From: Escherichia coli phage NG_A1
Length of the DNA: 64,000 nt
Strand: one strand, 5' to 3'
Sequence record: LC788705.1
Below, in pieces: positions 44,990-62,005 of this stretch; within the stretch, counting starts at the first letter, position 1, and each line of letters opens with the position of its first letter. Below the pieces are notes generated by a model. That model did no database searches and was not told the DNA's origin. It worked only from the letters and a program-made list of their open reading frames with translations. Position numbers and translations under genes: made by a program.

Positions 44990-45093
44990 TCTTTTGAATA
45001 GCTTAATAATTAGGTCGGAATTTCCTCTAGCTAGTAAGTATAGCTTTTCATAATCGAAGAATTTAATTTTTGTTTTCTCCTCGAATTTATGTA

Positions 45094-45123
45094 TATATTA
45101 TACTAGATTTCGAGAGAATTTAG
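45094..45123 (-). promoter_or_regulatory. Early sigma70-type promoter (TTGCTA-N18-TATAAT)
   Basis: -35 at 45118-45123, -10 at 45094-45099 on the minus strand. Confidence 0.6.
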
Positions 45124-45194
45124 CAACTAAAATTTTTATTTTTCTGCTTCGGACTTTCTTATCAATCCGAAACTTTCTCTCTCAAATTTATGTA

Positions 45195-45223
45195 TATATT
45201 ATACATCATTTATGAGCTGTTGC
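45195..45223 (-). promoter_or_regulatory. Early sigma70-type promoter (TTGGCA-N17-TATAAT), tandem with the promoter at 45094
   Basis: -35 at 45218-45223, -10 at 45195-45200 on the minus strand. Confidence 0.55.
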
Positions 45224-46562
45224 CAAATGCAATTTTAGCTAATTGAACTGCTTTCTCCGGAGTCATAGTAATAGTTTTCCACCCGTTGTTACGATACACT
45301 GCCATACGTCCAGAAGCCTGTCTTAGTCCAGTGCCACCTTTCATAATTAGATCTACAACAATAGGGTCGAGTTTGCCCTCGACAATACGTTGAACACGGC
45401 CTGCAAGCTGTTCAATGAGAGATTCATTATTAATGAGGCTTCCCATTATTAAACAAGACAGCTCATTAAGGGAAATGCCTTCAGAGAAGATACTTTGAGC
45501 TGCTGCAAGTACACAAGGCCCACCTTTTGCTATATCTTCCTGAATTTTTAATCGATCATCAAGTGGGGTTGCGCCAATAATCTCATAGATTATGACTCCT
45601 CGCTGAGATAATGCTTCTAGTACTGTTTGGATTAACTCTGTTCTATCACTTACAATGAGTACTTTATGTCCCATATTCACATATAAATGTGCTAGGTTTA
45701 TAATAGTCTCTCGATATTCGGGATGGTTATACACATCATTAGCACGTAATGCCCACGGTACGTTTTGGTTTCCTGATAGCTCAACAGGCACGGAGTACCT
45801 ATGGATTGTAGGTGCAACAGTATTATTAACCGGTGGGCTAAATATCTTATATCCAAAGAAATCTTTGAACATAACTTGTAAACCATCTTTTCGTTTTAGC
45901 GTACCGGATAGTCCAATTTTATAGCGAGCACATGATATTTCTAGGAAGTTAGTGAAAGTTGTAGCCACACAATGGTGAACTTCATCAACTATAACAGTAC
46001 CGAATACTTTAGAAAGATTATTCGCATGTTTATTCACTGTTTGAATATTACTGACCACAATTGGTGGATCAATATTGTATTTTCCAGAACCTATGATACC
46101 TGGTTCAAACCCAAACCATTTACGAACTTCTGCCGCCCACATTTCACGAATAGATGTGTTGGTACAAATTACCAAAGTTTTCTGGCCAAATTTATACGCA
46201 AGTGCCAGGGCTAGGATAGTTTTGCCAAATCCAGGCTTACCATTAATAATACAGGTATCATCGCACTCTTCATATATTGGGAGCTGGTCTTCTTCACGCA
46301 GCTTGAACTTAGGTCTTGGTATATCTACTGGAGCTAATGTGCGTTTATCGACTAATTCGTATTTTACTCCTTTAGCATCTAGTAAATCCAGACGCGTGAT
46401 AGGAATCCACTTAATCTCTTTGGCAACAACACCACTATTCTTATACATAATAGGGTATTTACTAGTCATTGTCTCAATGTGATAAGTGGTTTGTTTACTA
46501 CAATAATCCCAAAGTTCATCATCGGGCTTGAAATAGGCTTTATTAGATATAACAACCTTCAT
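45210..46562 (-). CDS. SF2 DEAD/DEAH-box DNA helicase, T5 D10-like (450 aa)
   Basis: Walker A GKPGFGKT, DEVH box VIVDEVHH, motif III SGT. Confidence 0.8.
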   Translation of the reverse strand: MKVVISNKAYFKPDDELWDYCSKQTTYHIETMTSKYPIMYKNSGVVAKEIKWIPITRLDLLDAKGVKYELVDKRTLAPVDIPRPKFKLREEDQLPIYEECDDTCIINGKPGFGKTILALALAYKFGQKTLVICTNTSIREMWAAEVRKWFGFEPGIIGSGKYNIDPPIVVSNIQTVNKHANNLSKVFGTVIVDEVHHCVATTFTNFLEISCARYKIGLSGTLKRKDGLQVMFKDFFGYKIFSPPVNNTVAPTIHRYSVPVELSGNQNVPWALRANDVYNHPEYRETIINLAHLYVNMGHKVLIVSDRTELIQTVLEALSQRGVIIYEIIGATPLDDRLKIQEDIAKGGPCVLAAAQSIFSEGISLNELSCLIMGSLINNESLIEQLAGRVQRIVEGKLDPIVVDLIMKGGTGLRQASGRMAVYRNNGWKTITMTPEKAVQLAKIAFGNSS

Positions 46563-49616: not shown

Positions 49617-49678
49617 ATTTAATCTCCTCTTGGTAAGTAAGTATAACTTCAGTGTTTCTTCTCTAACTTACCAATATA

Positions 49679-50569
49679 TTATACCAAATCTTTAAGCGAT
49701 TCAGCAACTAAAATTTCAATACGTTTTGCTAACATATCAATTTCTTCTTTATTTAAGTCACCGGGGTCTTTACCTTCGGGTAGAAGAAAGTTAGCAACTA
49801 CAGGTGTTAAACGCGTTTTTGTACGAATTAACTTGGCCAATGCTTGTGCAGCCTTATTACCAGAAGCATCATTATCTAGTAAGATAACAACAACTTTTAC
49901 ACCAGCAATAATATAAGGGCTGAACTTATCTGCAATATTATCCGAGGTAAACTGATGTGTACCAAAGCAACAAGAAGCATAGTCTATACCATTATCCTCT
50001 AGGTTCAGCATATCAAAGATACCTTCAACTAGAATAAGAACTGGAGTATTATATCGTACAGGGAAAATCGGTGGTGAAACTTGTTTTGGTTTTACTAAGT
50101 ATTTAGGAGGGGCAGAACTGTTTATAGAACGACCCAAAAATAGGATATTGCGTCCAACAGCATCTGTGATTGGGAATACAATTCTGCCTTCCCAGTCTGC
50201 TTGGTGTTGGAAAGCAAAATATTTCTTCAAGGTCTTAGAACTTATACCTCGGAAATCACCTTCGAAAAGGTAAGCAGATTCAGGAATTGCAAGATTTGTA
50301 GATCCATTCCTAATCTCTGAAATCTTTTTACGTACCTGCGATAGTCTTGGAGACTGTCGGTACTGAGTCTCATTAAAATAATGGTAAATGCTCGGTATAC
50401 CTTTACCGAAGCCACAACTCAAGCAGTGCATAATACCTGTTTCAGGATCAATACGCAAACTTGGATGTTTATCGTCATGATCTGGATTTAAGCAACAGAT
50501 TAAAATATCTCCACCAGTATCTTTATACTCAATTCCCTTAAGATCAAGTAATTCTGTTATTCGACTCAT
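49679..50569 (-). CDS. DnaG-type DNA primase (296 aa)
   Basis: Zinc-binding CCLNPDHDDKHPS...HCLSCG; TOPRIM motifs EGIFD and LDNDASG. Confidence 0.75.
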   Translation of the reverse strand: MSRITELLDLKGIEYKDTGGDILICCLNPDHDDKHPSLRIDPETGIMHCLSCGFGKGIPSIYHYFNETQYRQSPRLSQVRKKISEIRNGSTNLAIPESAYLFEGDFRGISSKTLKKYFAFQHQADWEGRIVFPITDAVGRNILFLGRSINSSAPPKYLVKPKQVSPPIFPVRYNTPVLILVEGIFDMLNLEDNGIDYASCCFGTHQFTSDNIADKFSPYIIAGVKVVVILLDNDASGNKAAQALAKLIRTKTRLTPVVANFLLPEGKDPGDLNKEEIDMLAKRIEILVAESLKDLV

Positions 50570-52586: not shown

Positions 52587-52620
52587 TGCAAAAAGGGGAA
52601 GGAGCATAGCCCCCTCCCCT
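52587..52620 (-). terminator. Intrinsic terminator on the minus strand
   Basis: 11-bp G/C-rich stem with two G-U pairs followed by UUUUU on the minus strand. Confidence 0.6.
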
Positions 52621-52638
52621 TAGGTTTAATTTACCAGA

Positions 52639-53406
52639 TTATTCAGCAGCCGCAGCTTTTGCATCCAGTTTAGCACGCTTAGCGGCACCATCATAGTCCT
52701 TAGCAACCAGACCACGACGAGACAGCATAGATTTAACACCGCGCTCAGACTTACCAGTTTTCTCAGCGATCTCAGCAACAGTCATGTTAACCAGATCCAG
52801 ACCTTCTAACAGATCTTCACGAGTTTTAGCACTTGAGGTTTCCTGTACCGGCATAGCAGCGATACGACCTTCACGAAGCAGGCTCAGAGCTTTACCGCGG
52901 ATCTGCTTAATATTACGACCGAAGTGAGCAGCGATAGCTTCAATAGTAGCACCAGCAACAACCTGATTAACAAAATCAGTTTCTTCATCTGGAGTGAAGG
53001 AACGAACAGCAGCAGCTTTTTCGGTTGGCTTAACAGAAGCGGTCATTTCCAGACTCAGAATCTTACCCTGTACCTGCTTAGCACCGAACTGACCACCAGC
53101 CACAGCAGCAGCGATTTCAGCATAGGTATACTGACCAGCATGAGCGTTCAGGAAATCAACCAGTTCAGCTTCCTGCTCAGGAGTCCACGGGGATTTCTGT
53201 ACTTCGTTAGCTTTCTGTACTTCAAAACCTTCTTTACGCAGTTTAGAGCCAACAGAGCGAGCGGTAACATCTTTGCCAGTTTCAGCGGCCAGTTCAGCAG
53301 CGATAGCAGCTACTTGTTCTTGAGAGATTACAGCAACACCCAGAGCAGTGGCTTTTGCTTTCAGAGACTCGGTTACACCTTCTACGTTCCAGTTCAGTTT
53401 AGACAT
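52639..53406 (-). CDS. DNA-binding protein with three tandem HTH-like repeats, T5 D5-like (255 aa)
   Basis: Three repeats of the type T(I/V)AEIA...G...VK..LS; E. coli-optimised codon usage. Confidence 0.5.
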   Translation of the reverse strand: MSKLNWNVEGVTESLKAKATALGVAVISQEQVAAIAAELAAETGKDVTARSVGSKLRKEGFEVQKANEVQKSPWTPEQEAELVDFLNAHAGQYTYAEIAAAVAGGQFGAKQVQGKILSLEMTASVKPTEKAAAVRSFTPDEETDFVNQVVAGATIEAIAAHFGRNIKQIRGKALSLLREGRIAAMPVQETSSAKTREDLLEGLDLVNMTVAEIAEKTGKSERGVKSMLSRRGLVAKDYDGAAKRAKLDAKAAAAE

Positions 53407-54172
53407 TATTATTTTTCTCCAATAGTTCTTTAATCGACAGGATTTCTATCCCATTCGTTTCGGCTTTCTTATAAGATGAGGAAGAACGTTTTGATTCATC
53501 CTCACAGATTAGGTATTTGACGTCTTTGGTAACGGATTTCTTAACCGTGTATCCTAGACCTTCTAAGTAGTTTGTTGCATCCGTTCGATTTGCAAAATCT
53601 TGCAAAGATCCGGTAATACATACCGCGATTCCATTTGGCTGGGCAACTAAATCATCAGTAACGACGGTTTTAGCTTTAGCACCAGTTGAGAATTTCCACG
53701 GTAATTCGATAACATCCTTGCCTTGTGGGGAATTTAGCCAGGCTTTATAATTTTCTCCAGCCTTGCCGTCAGCCTTCACATCATGGAAGCTAGTGCAATT
53801 TTGGGATAATTTCTTTGCTGCAACCTCTCCAATTAGAGGGATTCCTAAAGAACCGAGAACTGAACCAAAGTCAATGTCTCCGCGAACTTTAGTATTTAAT
53901 TCGCTAATTAACTTAGCGGCAACCTTGCTACCCACGGCTCTAACCAAATCTTCTTCGGTTAGGTAAAAGAGTTCTGAAATCTTCGTCAGCTCCAGCTTCT
54001 CAATAGTTTTCGGGCCAAAGCCCTTTAACTTCATTTTTGAACAGAAGTTCTCAATTAACTTACTTGATTGCGCTGGACAGTTGGACTTATTCCGACAGAA
54101 TAATTGTCCGTTGACAAGATCTAGCTTAGAACCACAAGAGGGACATTGTGTTGGAATTTCGATTTTCATCAA
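53399..54172 (-). CDS. NAD-dependent DNA ligase, C-terminal fragment (zinc finger, HhH, BRCT) (257 aa)
   Basis: Zinc finger CPSCGSKLDLVNGQLFCRNKSNCPAQ; HhH GFGPKTIEKL; BRCT-like C-terminus. Confidence 0.75.
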   Translation of the reverse strand: MMKIEIPTQCPSCGSKLDLVNGQLFCRNKSNCPAQSSKLIENFCSKMKLKGFGPKTIEKLELTKISELFYLTEEDLVRAVGSKVAAKLISELNTKVRGDIDFGSVLGSLGIPLIGEVAAKKLSQNCTSFHDVKADGKAGENYKAWLNSPQGKDVIELPWKFSTGAKAKTVVTDDLVAQPNGIAVCITGSLQDFANRTDATNYLEGLGYTVKKSVTKDVKYLICEDESKRSSSSYKKAETNGIEILSIKELLEKNNNV

Positions 54173-54199
54173 ATTTCTTCCTTATCAATTTATATAAAT

Positions 54200-54228
54200 A
54201 TTATAGCAAGTATTTAAGCATTTAGCAA
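54200..54228 (-). promoter_or_regulatory. Early sigma70-type promoter (TTGCTA-N17-TATAAT) inside the gap between the ligase fragments
   Basis: -35 at 54223-54228, -10 at 54200-54205 on the minus strand. Confidence 0.6.
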
Positions 54229-54371
54229 CTACAATTTTAACTAACTTTGCTTACCCTCGCCATAACTTTCTATCCCTCAACTGAATGATAATAGTATATA
54301 CCTAAGCGGCGAAAATGTCAATAACCACTTTATAATTCCGATATGGTAGATGGGTAGCAAAGGGTTATGTA

Positions 54372-55343
54372 TTAATCGTATACTCGCTCTACTATGCACG
54401 GGATTACACCACCAGCACGAATCACTCGAATTTGGCAACCGATCTCTAGATCAAGAGAGTTAATATAATCAACGTTATTAAGAGTCGCTTTAACAATTGT
54501 AGCATCATCAATAATTACCGGTTCGAAATAACCAACTGGAGTTACTTTACCAGAAGCCCCTACCTGCCATTCAACTTTAGTAAGAGTTGTAATCTCACCT
54601 TCTTCATCCTCTTTAATAGCGAATGCTCCACGAGGGAATTTATTAGTCCAGCCTTCTCGGAAGAACTTGTTGTTGTCGTTAATACGAACAACTTTACCGT
54701 CCGTCGGAATCCATTTAAAGAAGGAACGCACATTAACAACTGTTAAGAAGTTCTCATTCTCTAGCCAAAGCATATCTTTTAAATACGCTTCTGTAATACC
54801 TACAGATTCAGCAGAACACTGGATACCATATGCAACGAAGATTAAACCACCTTCCCCGATACGTTGTACAAAATCATCACTATCTTTGAGGTTAATAGCA
54901 CCAGAGGCAAAGTTACGTTTATTTTCTACTTCTTTTGTAATTAGAACTTCACCAGTGATTTGAGTAGGTACTTTTTGGGAAATCTTTTTAGGGATGTTCA
55001 GCAATCTTACGTTGCTTGTGACATCATTCCCTAGAATACCATTACCACGAGTTAGTGCTTGAACAAATTCGCCATTAATATATAACAGAGAAATCGCACA
55101 ACCATCTAACTTATCAGTTTCTACTTGACCTAACGGGTTAAATGGGGGTTTATCTCCACGATTATAATAAACTTTCTGTAAAGAATACATACGATACAGA
55201 TGTGGAATATCACCCTTAGGTCCGATCTCTTCTTCTAACGGGAAGCGTTTTACCAGGCAATCATACTCCTCATCTGAGATTAAAGACATACCTTGATAAT
55301 ATGCTTCTTGGCAACGTTTAATAAAGTCTTTTACATTGGTCAT
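54372..55343 (-). CDS. NAD-dependent DNA ligase, N-terminal fragment (adenylation and OB domains) (323 aa)
   Basis: Adenylation motif I TDKLDGCAISLLY (KxDG). Confidence 0.75.
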   Translation of the reverse strand: MTNVKDFIKRCQEAYYQGMSLISDEEYDCLVKRFPLEEEIGPKGDIPHLYRMYSLQKVYYNRGDKPPFNPLGQVETDKLDGCAISLLYINGEFVQALTRGNGILGNDVTSNVRLLNIPKKISQKVPTQITGEVLITKEVENKRNFASGAINLKDSDDFVQRIGEGGLIFVAYGIQCSAESVGITEAYLKDMLWLENENFLTVVNVRSFFKWIPTDGKVVRINDNNKFFREGWTNKFPRGAFAIKEDEEGEITTLTKVEWQVGASGKVTPVGYFEPVIIDDATIVKATLNNVDYINSLDLEIGCQIRVIRAGGVIPCIVERVYD

Positions 55344-55616: not shown

Positions 55617-55646
55617 TTTGCAACCCTCTCATTAATTTATATAAAT

Positions 55647-55675
55647 ATTATATAACAAAACTGAGTTGAAAGCAA
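55647..55675 (-). promoter_or_regulatory. Early sigma70-type promoter (TTGCTT-N17-TATAAT)
   Basis: -35 at 55670-55675, -10 at 55647-55652 on the minus strand. Confidence 0.6.
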
Positions 55676-55702
55676 GTACATTTATAAAGAAAAAGCCAAG
55701 AA

Positions 55703-56011
55703 CTAGGCATTCTTGGCTTTGAGTTCTTCAGCTCGTTTCTGTACTTCATGTAAAACCTCAGATTCGCTAAGAATCTGTGTAAACGCATAGAAAAGCTGTG
55801 ATGTTGTTTCTAGGGTGTAAGGAAAAGAGAAGCCAGATTTCGTTGGAAACCATTCATCATTAATATCAAGAAGCCAGTAACGAATACCCATGTATAGATT
55901 CCCACGAAATTCAGATACTGTTAATCTTACTTGTTCCCCCTCCTTCTCCCAAAGTATGATGGACTGGTCATCAACGTGTCCTTCATAGTTTTGATTTACC
56001 TGTTCGCTCAT
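55703..56011 (-). CDS. PC4-like ssDNA-binding protein (102 aa)
   Basis: LTVSEFRGNLYMGIRYW...FPTKSGFSF resembles the PC4/p15 fold signature; a PC4 homologue has been reported in T5. Confidence 0.55.
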   Translation of the reverse strand: MSEQVNQNYEGHVDDQSIILWEKEGEQVRLTVSEFRGNLYMGIRYWLLDINDEWFPTKSGFSFPYTLETTSQLFYAFTQILSESEVLHEVQKRAEELKAKNA

Positions 56012-56805: not shown

Positions 56806-56862
56806 ATTTTATATTTCCTTAATTAAGAATTAAACAGAATAGTTCTTTCAAACTATGAGAAT

Positions 56863-56891
56863 ATTATATCAAGAATTATAGGATTAAGCAA
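56863..56891 (-). promoter_or_regulatory. Early sigma70-type promoter (TTGCTT-N17-TATAAT)
   Basis: -35 at 56886-56891, -10 at 56863-56868 on the minus strand. Confidence 0.6.
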
Positions 56892-56908
56892 CTGAAATTT
56901 TTCTGTAG

Positions 56909-57857: not shown

Positions 57858-57888
57858 ATTTAAACTCCTCTCTCAAATTTATGAATCT

Positions 57889-57917
57889 ATTATACAGAAA
57901 AATTTTCCTGAAAGCAA
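57889..57917 (-). promoter_or_regulatory. T5 PN25-type early promoter
   Basis: Minus strand reads AAATTTATTTGCTTTCAGGAAAATTTTTCTGTATAATAGATTCATAAATTTGAGAGAGGAGTT, matching the classical T5 PN25 sequence as I recall it. Confidence 0.85.
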
Positions 57918-61386: not shown

Positions 61387-61885
61387 AACAATACTCCTGT
61401 GTTGGAAATAAAATAAGTTTTCTTTAGGACTATTCAGAAAGAATAGAACAACTGTTACTGTCAATTTCTCAACAAATTAATCGCAAATACTGAAGTGGGG
61501 TGGCAACTTCCACTTTCACGCTGCGCTGCTGCTTTGCTATATCGCACAAATCCTTGAGGATGGCCGCTAAGCCAGATTTGCTCACCTAATGCTTCATATA
61601 CTAGCTCATACTAGATGCAATATAACTTACAGAATCACGTCTCGGAGTTTTTCACTCCTCCCATCTCACTTCACAACCACCTCATACTAGGTTGCTTCGA
61701 GGCCTTACCAGGGTTCCTATGGGACGCAGATCGCTAAGTATTCTATTAACTATTTGTTTAAAAACTAACACGTAACAGTTAAAACAACCCTTAATGGGGC
61801 AGCCTAACTGTTCCGTATCGCGGATTGTAAACAAGAAAAATTAGCAAAATCAATTTTTACTAATGTCTCTCAATTCAATATAAAT

Positions 61886-61914
61886 ATTATATCAAGATTT
61901 TGGGCATCCTGCAA
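61886..61914 (-). promoter_or_regulatory. Early sigma70-type promoter (TTGCAG-N17-TATAAT)
   Basis: -35 at 61909-61914, -10 at 61886-61891 on the minus strand; ~500 nt upstream of the next start. Confidence 0.5.
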
Positions 61915-62005
61915 GTAAAATTTTCCGGATGGTGCTATCATTGGTCTTGAGTACGGATAAAACCGAGCCAAAATGACTCGGTAATCAGAGTTCAGCTAAT
62001 AAAAA

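Follow-up and report, generated by a model that had tools for sequence, protein, structure and literature searches.

The NAD-dependent DNA ligase of T5-like phages (Demerecviridae) is already known to be encoded in two pieces. A split NAD+-dependent ligase was reported with the T5 genome, according to PMC1684257 and PMC3632103, which cite the work (Wang et al., 2005), and a "split T5 ligase" is named as such in a 2006 paper (PMC1684257). Two PDB entries, 9HU3 and 9I5I, contain a chain A of 339 aa named 'DNA ligase (NAD(+))' and a chain B of 248 aa named 'DNA ligase subunit B', and the sequences of these chains are those of Providencia phage vB_PreS_PR1 proteins. The comparison with the ligase region of other T5-like phages that the original prediction had proposed recovered the same ligA/ligB pair, annotated as subunits A and B, in 446 phage records.

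The locus described here lies in a window of 64,000 nucleotides from Escherichia coli phage NG_A1 (LC788705.1) and is a split ligase locus of this type, with 98.4% nucleotide identity to T5_ev212 over the locus; the window shares about 98% identity with phage T5. The locus is that of T5 ligA and ligB (AAU05253/AAU05254): the LigA proteins share 99-100% identity, the gene order orf90-ligA-gap-ligB-D5 and the 202-bp gap are the same, and we found no substantive difference between the two. Two adjacent, co-oriented genes are separated at the boundary between the OB and Zn modules and lie 5' of D5, and the position of this break is identical in all T5-like loci compared. The features of the region, in the order of transcription, are as follows.

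55720-55692, minus strand: terminator-like hairpin, 5' of the promoter copy that precedes orf90-ligA, which lies just downstream (55639-55685).
55639-55685, minus strand: predicted copy of the T5 early-type promoter (TTGCTT-N17-TATAAT), a member of repeat family D1, upstream of orf90-ligA.
54372-55343, minus strand: ligA, an ORF of 323 aa with the adenylation and OB domains (Pfam; 99% identity to annotated T5 ligA).
54170-54371, minus strand: non-coding ligA-ligB intergenic region of 202 bp, with two predicted tandem promoters and the ligB ribosome-binding site.
54293-54321, minus strand: predicted promoter P1, TTGACA-N17-TATACT, an 11/12 consensus match with cross-genus conservation.
54200-54228, minus strand: predicted promoter P2, TTGCTA-N17-TATAAT, whose -10 is extended (TGcTATAAT); a 10/12 consensus match that belongs to D1, a repeat family of T5 early promoters.
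53399-54169, minus strand: ligB, an ORF of 256 aa from its ATG with the Zn-finger, HhH and BRCT modules (Pfam; annotated as ligB in T5).
52639-53406, minus strand: gene for the D5 DNA-binding protein (ORF, sequence and annotation).
52593-52621, minus strand: terminator-like hairpin after D5, with a 13-bp stem (8 GC pairs) and a T run behind it.

That the two halves of the ligase are separate ORFs on the same strand, as first proposed, was borne out, with the second ORF spanning 53399-54172 (257 aa) when read from a TTG. The gap of 199 bp given at that time holds to the TTG at 54172 but becomes 202 bp when measured to the ATG at 54169, which is almost certainly the true start of ligB because it is preceded by an AAGGAAG ribosome-binding site, corresponds to the annotated start in T5_ev212, and yields an N-terminus that matches 9hu3_B. 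At its other end, ligB overlaps the next gene, with its stop codon and the D5 ATG sharing nucleotides (ATGTCTAA); since the two overlap in this way, ligB and D5 appear to form one unit 3' of P1 and P2, the end of which is probably the hairpin at 52593-52621. The order ligB-D5 is kept in distant relatives. In phage HZ_ZJUN2, an additional 200 bp corresponds to a small ORF 5' of ligA, outside the gap.

LigA contains the catalytic modules expected of the enzyme. Pfam matches cover the adenylation domain (DNA_ligase_aden, E 2e-23, 83.5 bits against a cut-off of 27, beginning at residue 47) and the OB domain (DNA_ligase_OB, E 4e-22, 78.4 bits against a cut-off of 32.9, residues 252-321). The KLDG motif with its lysine K78 occupies residues 78-81 and is invariant across five genera. 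N-terminal to these, residues 14-28 (AYY..(I/L)SDEEYD) match a short domain Ia, in which Y15, Y16, S23, E25, E26, Y27 and D28 are likewise invariant across five genera. In E. coli LigA the NMN-contacting residues of domain Ia are Y22, D32, Y35 and D36. Residues 214-320 of LigA align with residues 284-390 of E. coli LigA (2owo), and the match of LigA to 9hu3_A has an E value of 3e-103.

The remaining modules are found in LigB. Its zinc finger (CxxC...C...C) is formed by C9, C12, C25 and C31, invariant across five genera, and its BRCT domain is matched by Pfam (E 9e-8, 32.7 bits against a cut-off of 21.3). The HhH_2 match is weak (24.6 bits, below the curated cut-off of 27), and the HhH region is covered by alignment to solved LigA structures: residues 3-122 of LigB align with 402-529 of 2owo, and this alignment together with that to 1dgs 400-653 spans Zn, HhH and BRCT. 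The match to 9hu3_B has an E value of 1e-81. Both halves are under purifying selection as judged from their codons, with dN/dS of 0.02-0.12 for ligA and 0.09-0.15 for ligB.

We are highly confident in the overall reading that this is a naturally split, two-chain ligase whose subunits are translated separately, with the intervening gap serving as a promoter module and the split having arisen once. LigA contributes the catalytic core, with its NMN-binding domain Ia, an adenylyltransferase domain that holds the KLDG lysine, and an OB fold, and LigB contributes the DNA-clamping and accessory modules, namely the Cys4 zinc finger, HhH and BRCT. The break falls in the OB-to-Zn linker, between positions aligning to approximately 390 and 402 of E. 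coli LigA. After separate translation, LigA and LigB would join non-covalently into a working ligase, as suggested for T5 by analogy with the Providencia homologue and its co-structure. That the ligase must be assembled from two polypeptides, as originally supposed, agrees with the subunit A/B annotation in hundreds of genomes, with the literature (PMC1684257), and with the presence of both chains in 9hu3 and 9i5i. Within such a complex, LigA alone is expected to self-adenylate while nick sealing would need LigB, because LigN truncated at the same boundary adenylates without ligating (PMC1684257). In the searchable literature we found no biochemical test of the T5 LigA and LigB proteins.

The gap itself contains the promoter that had been predicted there, TTGCTA-N17-TATAAT at 54228..54200 on the minus strand (P2), along with a TG extension, and comparative evidence indicates that it is probably real. 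A second candidate, P1, had been overlooked, although it is the stronger consensus match of the two. A loose promoter scan of a 5-kb region showed no enrichment (10 sites vs 11.6 expected from shuffles). Across the whole 64 kb, 13 minus-strand sites match at least 10 of 12 consensus positions, and two of them fall inside the 202-bp gap. The hexamers of P1 and P2 are invariant across five genera while their spacers have diverged (T5, Sugarland, L036, Providencia PR1 and Proteus PM135), and Vibrio phages have equivalents of P1 and P2 at about -155 and -59 from ligB, respectively. In a marine clade with a gap of 64 bp, a single promoter is predicted (TTGACT-N17-TATAAT). A putative sigma-70 promoter lies 5' of ligB in each T5-like relative examined. 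These consensus matches and their conservation suggest that P1 and P2 are sigma-70 promoters of the T5 early type. A search of the literature for mapped T5 transcription start sites found none. An 8-codon mini-ORF after P1 (MARVSKVS, ~54263-54237) was considered as a gene and rejected, as it is absent as a conserved ORF in Sugarland and Vibrio phages.

P1, P2 and the ribosome-binding site would start the ligB-D5 transcription unit, and a separate promoter further upstream would serve ligA together with orf90. Since no terminator was seen inside the ligA-ligB gap, read-through from ligA into ligB is likely. Among T5-group phages, divergence of the gap (K 0.00-0.05) is far below synonymous divergence in the flanking genes (dS 0.11-0.93), corresponding to evolution approximately 6 to 20 times slower than at synonymous sites, with 0 indels; a gap divergence of 0.03 stands beside dS values of 0.18-0.65. 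Because it is so much more conserved than synonymous sites, the gap looks like a conserved regulatory module rather than a decaying scar.

The split ligases group as a single clade, extending down to ~42% identity, in a neighbour-joining tree that is rough and carries no support values. Two sister contigs (L073 and L074) encode a fused ligase within the same PC4-like / ligase / D5 / DnaB synteny. The probable course of events is a single split at the base of the T5-like clade, which purifying selection has since kept. As to what caused it, one possibility, to which we give a low but not negligible probability, is that the split was a selected transcriptional rewiring, in which a promoter module entered the linker and put the DNA-clamping half into the D5 regulon, and not a mobile-element accident. 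This possibility is raised by three observations taken together: throughout the split clade the predicted promoter is situated within what was the ligase gene, at the OB|Zn linker, ligB is coupled to D5, and in the contig with fused ligase (L073) a T5-type promoter is predicted between ligase and D5. If correct, rewiring would permit separate dosage or timing for the two subunits and perhaps a ligase-independent role for LigB, and the site would later have become a hotspot for NADAR, DprA-like and T5orf172 genes and a carbamoyltransferase cassette.

We also give a low probability to the suggestion that the gap is a scar, left when a free-standing homing endonuclease gene entered the linker between OB and Zn, broke the ligase in two, and disappeared again by deletion, with 202 bp remaining. 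Splitting of phage genes through endonuclease insertion is established, as for nrdA of Aeromonas phage Aeh1, split by mobE, and T4 topoisomerase genes 39/60 with mobA are further phage 'genes in pieces'. Genes do occur at this site in relatives: T5orf172 (GIY-YIG-like) genes, just above the Pfam cut-off, are present in two marine relatives (L066, 4918-5289, in a gap that carries a 3.8-kb cassette; L067, 5584-5946); Proteus phage Stubb has a NADAR gene there, and Vibrio phages have DprA-like ones. In L081, a lineage with a separate split, the interval between the two ligase halves is taken up exactly by a TnsA-like endonuclease ORF, and start and stop codons overlap. For the intervening ORFs of the Vibrio and Proteus phages, Pfam and PHROGs returned no HNH, GIY-YIG or LAGLIDADG match, only DprA-like (phrog_768) and one unknown family.

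For the sequence now present in the gap, the idea of a lost element found no support. The gap has changed far less than synonymous sites and without indels, it consists of two predicted promoters that are conserved from enterobacterial to Vibrio phages, and the shortest gaps, the 64-bp ones of the marine clade, hold a promoter and a ribosome-binding site and nothing else. The genes inserted in relatives are located between the ligA stop and P1, a placement from which they appear to be add-ons to a pre-existing split. We found no ORF within the gap, no flanking direct repeats of at least 7 nt around it, and only noise in tblastn of the relatives' gap ORFs against the T5-type gap. An endonuclease remnant was ruled out by this lack of similarity and of flanking repeats. 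As an account of how the split began, the mobile-element idea retains some value, although nothing in the present sequence points to an endonuclease at that stage, given T5orf172 at the same site and the TnsA-like ORF in the separately split lineage.

We consider it improbable that the two halves have become uncoupled, with LigA acting as a minimal ligase alone, ligB decaying, or LigB recruited to another job within the D5 unit such as DNA or nick binding or BRCT-mediated recruitment. C-terminal modules are missing in some viral NAD ligases, and ligB has conserved predicted promoters of its own, with its translation coupled to that of D5 rather than of ligA. In some comparisons synonymous divergence also differs, at 0.58-0.65 for ligA and 0.18 for ligB, because of which separate recombination histories are possible for the two genes. 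Against uncoupling, ligB shows no decay, with its dN/dS in the range given above and its Cys4 finger invariant; both halves are kept, adjacent and in the same order, in all split loci with enough downstream sequence; and the protein identities of the halves drop in parallel (72/73, 59/56, 52/54 and 51/46%). N-terminal fragments cut at the boundary adenylate but do not ligate (PMC1684257), and the two PDB entries each hold both chains. LigB may nevertheless have an additional role beyond the ligase.

Rejoining of the two ORFs by a group I intron, a split intein or programmed frameshifting, or their separation by a sequencing error, is extremely unlikely: introns and homing elements occur in T-even and T5-like phages and 202 bp is close to the minimum size for a small intron, but ligB is in a different frame from ligA, every reading frame of the gap contains stops, its length ranges between 64 and 3824 bp among relatives, with room for whole genes, each half has its own start codon in the relatives compared, the split is common to 446 independently sequenced genomes, and the deposited structures contain two separate chains. 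The unrecognised splicing that had been allowed for can be set aside, since an Rfam scan covering 53900-54700 with E values up to 10 returned no intron family and only two chance sRNA matches. A split intein is ruled out as well: 2-3 residues of LigA follow its OB domain and 8 residues of LigB precede the first Cys of the zinc finger, and because these termini have no surplus residues relative to fused LigA, there is no space for intein halves. A frameshift correction that would restore one ORF fails against the stops in every frame of the gap and the agreement of the 446 genomes, as does a sequencing error.

As a naturally two-piece NAD ligase, the enzyme is a textbook-level curiosity in both phage replication and ligase engineering, and it was known before this work from literature since 2005, annotation in hundreds of genomes, and the deposited two-chain structure of a homologue. 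The comparisons made here add that the split appears ancient, with a single origin in the T5-like lineage, and is always accompanied by a predicted gap promoter; that the gap is constrained more than synonymous sites; and that accessory and endonuclease-like genes have repeatedly landed at this site. They also frame the question of why the split is maintained, for which separate regulation of the subunits and historical accident are the candidates.

Among described systems, Providencia phage vB_PreS_PR1, which belongs to another genus, shares the ligA-gap-ligB layout, the break point and the predicted tandem promoters, with a gap of 192 bp. Its chains match LigA and LigB over essentially their entire length, at a protein identity of ~54-61%. 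In the phage 'genes in pieces' (Aeh1 nrdA and T4 39/60), too, an essential enzyme of DNA metabolism is divided between two neighbouring genes of one orientation, with the break at a domain boundary, and is put together again from their products; unlike them, T5 and its close relatives have no endonuclease gene in the gap, and a conserved promoter module is predicted there. Single-chain bacterial LigA (E. coli, 2OWO; Thermus filiformis, 1DGS/1V9P) shares the domain order Ia, NTase, OB, Zn, HhH, BRCT, the KxDG motif and the Cys4 finger, and T5-like phages also keep the NAD+ residues of domain Ia (YY...SDEEYD). T5 LigA is ~70 residues shorter than bacterial LigA across Ia and NTase. Whereas the bacterial enzyme is a single polypeptide of ~670 aa, that of this phage is made as 323 + 256 aa, with a stop codon, two predicted promoters, a ribosome-binding site and a start codon in place of the OB-Zn linker. 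All modules of the LigA family are thus present (KxDG NTase, Ia, OB and Cys4/HhH/BRCT), but not in one polypeptide: after the stop at 54372-54374 and the 202-bp gap, a new ATG begins the separate LigB chain with Cys4, HhH and BRCT. This two-polypeptide layout is the known defining peculiarity of the T5-type ligase.

The NAD-dependent DNA ligase of phage NG_A1 is encoded by two ORFs on the same strand, as originally predicted:

54372..55343, minus strand, ligA, the upstream ORF (323 aa)
53399..54172, minus strand, ligB, the second ORF (257 aa counted from a TTG)

The first ORF matched the NAD-ligase adenylation (E 2e-23) and OB (E 4e-22) domains, and the second gave a BRCT match and a weak HhH match, with a CxxC zinc-finger motif at its beginning. 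In the sequence read-out, a ligB ATG at 54169 is preceded by AAGGAAG, and the same ATG is the annotated ligB start in T5_ev212 and the N-terminus of a solved homologue. The gap between the genes is therefore 54170-54371, or 202 bp; the length of 199 bp first proposed applies when counting from the upstream TTG.

LigA residues 214-320 aligned with residues 284-390 of E. coli LigA (2owo) and LigB residues 3-122 with residues 402-529; the break falls in the short linker leading from the OB fold to the zinc finger. LigA ends 2-3 residues past the OB match and LigB begins 8 residues ahead of the first cysteine, and the break position is identical in T5, Klebsiella phage Sugarland, Proteus phage PM135 and two Vibrio phage lineages. 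A split intein was ruled out, as the junction has no surplus sequence. The original prediction had also allowed for unrecognised splicing, or a frameshift correction restoring one ORF. Neither was borne out: an Rfam scan of 53900-54700 (E up to 10) matched neither an intron nor any other structured RNA, none of the three frames of the gap is free of stop codons, and ligA and ligB are read in different frames. Across relatives, moreover, the gap ranges from 64 bp to 3.8 kb, sometimes with whole genes inside. On these grounds we rejected splicing, frameshifting and sequencing error.

A PDB sequence search with LigA and LigB led to entries 9hu3 and 9i5i, in which chain A (“DNA ligase (NAD(+))”, 339 aa) matched LigA end to end (E 3e-103) and chain B (“DNA ligase subunit B”, 248 aa) matched LigB end to end (E 1e-81). 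Providencia phages vB_PreS_PR1 and PSTCR5 are 100% identical to chain B, and the chain A sequence is also that of LigA in the PR1 contig (L039); PR1 likewise has a ligA-gap-ligB arrangement, its 192-bp gap holding both promoters described below. What these entries show is co-deposition of the two chains rather than activity. Haloferax LigN cut after the OB domain, explicitly mimicking T5, self-adenylates and cannot ligate (PMC1684257). Because this OB-terminated truncation adenylates without ligating, LigA alone would by analogy be expected to be insufficient for ligation. The two-chain homologue supports the claim of a ligase made of two polypeptides.

Both halves are under selection. Across five genera there is no change in KLDG, in the YY...SDEEYD residues of domain Ia or in any of the four zinc-finger cysteines, dN/dS is 0.02-0.12 for ligA and 0.09-0.15 for ligB (Nei-Gojobori, several T5-group genomes), and LigA/LigB protein identities drop in parallel with distance (72/73, 59/56, 52/54 and 51/46%). 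Neither gene is a pseudogene. Against the genomes of L025-L027, dS was about threefold higher in ligA (0.58-0.65) than in ligB (0.18), suggesting that a mosaic breakpoint left by recombination lies at the gap or close to it.

The gap contains the predicted TTGCTA-N17-TATAAT promoter (P2), as well as a better-matching one (P1) that had gone unmentioned. These elements, their relatives and the neighboring hairpins are as follows:

54321..54293, minus strand, P1, TTGACA-N17-TATACT, 11/12 match
54228..54200, minus strand, P2, TTGCTA-N17-TATAAT with TG extension
45190-45236, 55639-55685, 56855-56901 and 61878-61924, other copies of the P2 promoter family
57868-57896 (minus strand), also 49655-49716, 55626-55685, 56855-56901 and 61865-61924, repeated promoter family D1-D3
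55720..55692, terminator-like hairpin upstream of the orf90-ligA promoter copy
52621..52593, terminator-like hairpin after D5

Within the 64-kb window, 13 promoter matches of at least 10/12 lie on the minus strand, two of them inside the gap. Copies of the P2 family have in common an AAAATT block on the upstream side, TTGCT as the -35, an extended -10 and the motif ATAAAT further down, and presumably match the classical strong T5 early promoters; the copy at 57868-57896 (minus strand) reads TGTATAATAGATTCATAAATTTGAGAGAG, which we take to agree exactly with the classical T5 P_N25 promoter at the -10 and downstream of it. Among T5 and the Epseptimavirus group, gap divergence was K = 0.00-0.05 with zero indels, versus a flanking-gene dS of 0.11-0.93; the non-coding gap is more constrained than silent sites. 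In a cross-genus alignment, TTGAC / TATA.T of P1 and TTGC / TG.TATAAT of P2 were invariant and the spacers diverged. Vibrio phages carry the same pair at ~-155 and ~-59 relative to the ligB start, and the 64-bp gap of a marine metagenomic clade is filled by one TTGACT-N17-TATAAT.

No terminator-like hairpin was found in the gap. The start codon of D5, the DNA-binding protein gene directly downstream, overlaps the ligB stop (ATGTCTAA, 53399-53406, minus strand), an overlap that implies coupled translation of ligase subunit B and D5. We infer promoter function for P1 and P2, and the layout would run terminator, promoter, orf90-ligA, P1, P2, ligB-D5, terminator. A second tandem T5-type pair lies in 45074-45236 (minus strand; TTGGCA-N17-TATAAT at 45226..45198 and TTGCTA-N18-TATAAT at 45126..45097), its ~101-bp spacing roughly equal to the 93 bp between P1 and P2, and placing promoters in tandem at ~100-bp spacing may be a design that recurs in the NG_A1 genome. 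After P1 we also observed an 8-codon mini-ORF, MARVSKVS (54237-54263, minus strand), with a GAGGGA Shine-Dalgarno-like motif. The GAGGGA/TTGGGA motif is kept downstream of P1 in relatives and the ORF is not; it could be the vestigial leader of a lost gene or belong to the region downstream of the promoter.

We recovered 78 IMG/VR loci with LigA relatives and classed each as split or fused. All relatives down to ~42% identity are split at the same place, and fused forms occur from 38% identity downward. A neighbour-joining tree built from the N-terminal halves, without support values, places all T5-like split ligases in one clade whose sister group (L073, L075, L076) is fused. T5 synteny (PC4-like gene, ligase, D5, DnaB) is retained in L073 and L074, whose 582-aa ligase carries adenylation, OB, HhH and BRCT domains on one chain. 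One split clade with a fused, syntenic sister supports the view that the ligase split once, long ago, within the T5-like lineage. In L073 the stretch from the fused ligase to D5 holds a T5-type promoter (TTGCTT-N17-TATAAT), and we infer that in the split clade the promoter of the D5 unit may now be found a module farther upstream, within what used to be the ligase gene. By eye, this closest fused relative (L073 3986-5734) has no Cys4 motif after the OB domain, and Pfam gave no zinc-finger match in its ligase, in contrast to the invariant Cys4 finger of T5-clade LigB.

In two further loci, L081 and L083, the ligase is broken at this domain boundary too, yet the same tree, which has no support values, places them among fused sequences, and they probably split independently. 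L083 (4001-5891, IMGVR_UViG_3300037424_000564), outside the T5-like clade, is a 205-kb jumbo-phage-sized contig with an aden+OB / Zn+BRCT ligase and a 76-bp gap containing TTGACA-N17-TATATT.

The ligA-ligB site is clearly permissive for insertions, which include:

Proteus phage PM135, a 55-60 aa ORF
L037 4953-5609, Proteus phage Stubb, a NADAR-domain gene (E 2e-31)
Vibrio phages, one to three genes, one DprA-like
L066 and L067, T5orf172 (GIY-YIG-like) genes
L066 4918-8750 (IMGVR_UViG_3300040751_003118), a 3.8-kb cassette

The cassette, equalled in gap length by L068 (3.8 kb), encodes a T5orf172 protein, a 2OG-Fe(II) oxygenase, a methyltransferase, a carbamoyltransferase and a DUF6071-like protein, and may be a nucleotide or DNA modification module. 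In Stubb, the NADAR gene stands where its close relative PM135 has only a small ORF, placing an NAD/ADP-ribose-processing domain beside an NAD-consuming ligase. Where alignable, the additional DNA follows the ligA stop and precedes P1, so that insertions were added to a gene already split.

An endonuclease origin of the T5-clade split is possible, with no support in this sequence. In its favor, L081 (4001-6721, IMGVR_UViG_3300029288_000413) has an NAD ligase of ~30% identity split at the same OB/Zn boundary, its gap exactly filled by an ORF of 263 aa that carries a TnsA-like endonuclease domain (E 1e-11) and overlaps the ligA end and the ligB start. L081 appears to be a clear example of a ligase split by an endonuclease and shows that such insertion at this boundary does happen. 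The T5 gap itself is without an ORF, retains no trace of the genes that occupy this gap in relatives, is not flanked by direct repeats of 7 nt or more, and is highly constrained. It is not a decaying scar, and the earlier suggestion that it marks a lost mobile element is not supported for the present sequence.

The two-polypeptide reading agrees with known T5-like phages. Over the 2.2-kb ligase region, identity to Escherichia phage T5_ev212 is 98.4%, and 446 phage records matched, 429 of them collinear over at least 80% of the query. The annotated ligA-ligB pair is preceded by a hypothetical gene and followed by D5, DnaB and primase. T5 ligA (AAU05253) and ligB (AAU05254) are given as ligase subunits (PMC3632103), and the split is already described; the ligase observation is real and known, and its reading as a two-polypeptide enzyme with a promoter in the gap is correct. 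The comparative points are incremental: a second gap promoter, a promoter before ligB in all examined T5-like relatives, strong gap constraint, one origin of the split beside a fused sister lineage that shares the synteny, and an insertion hotspot at the same site.
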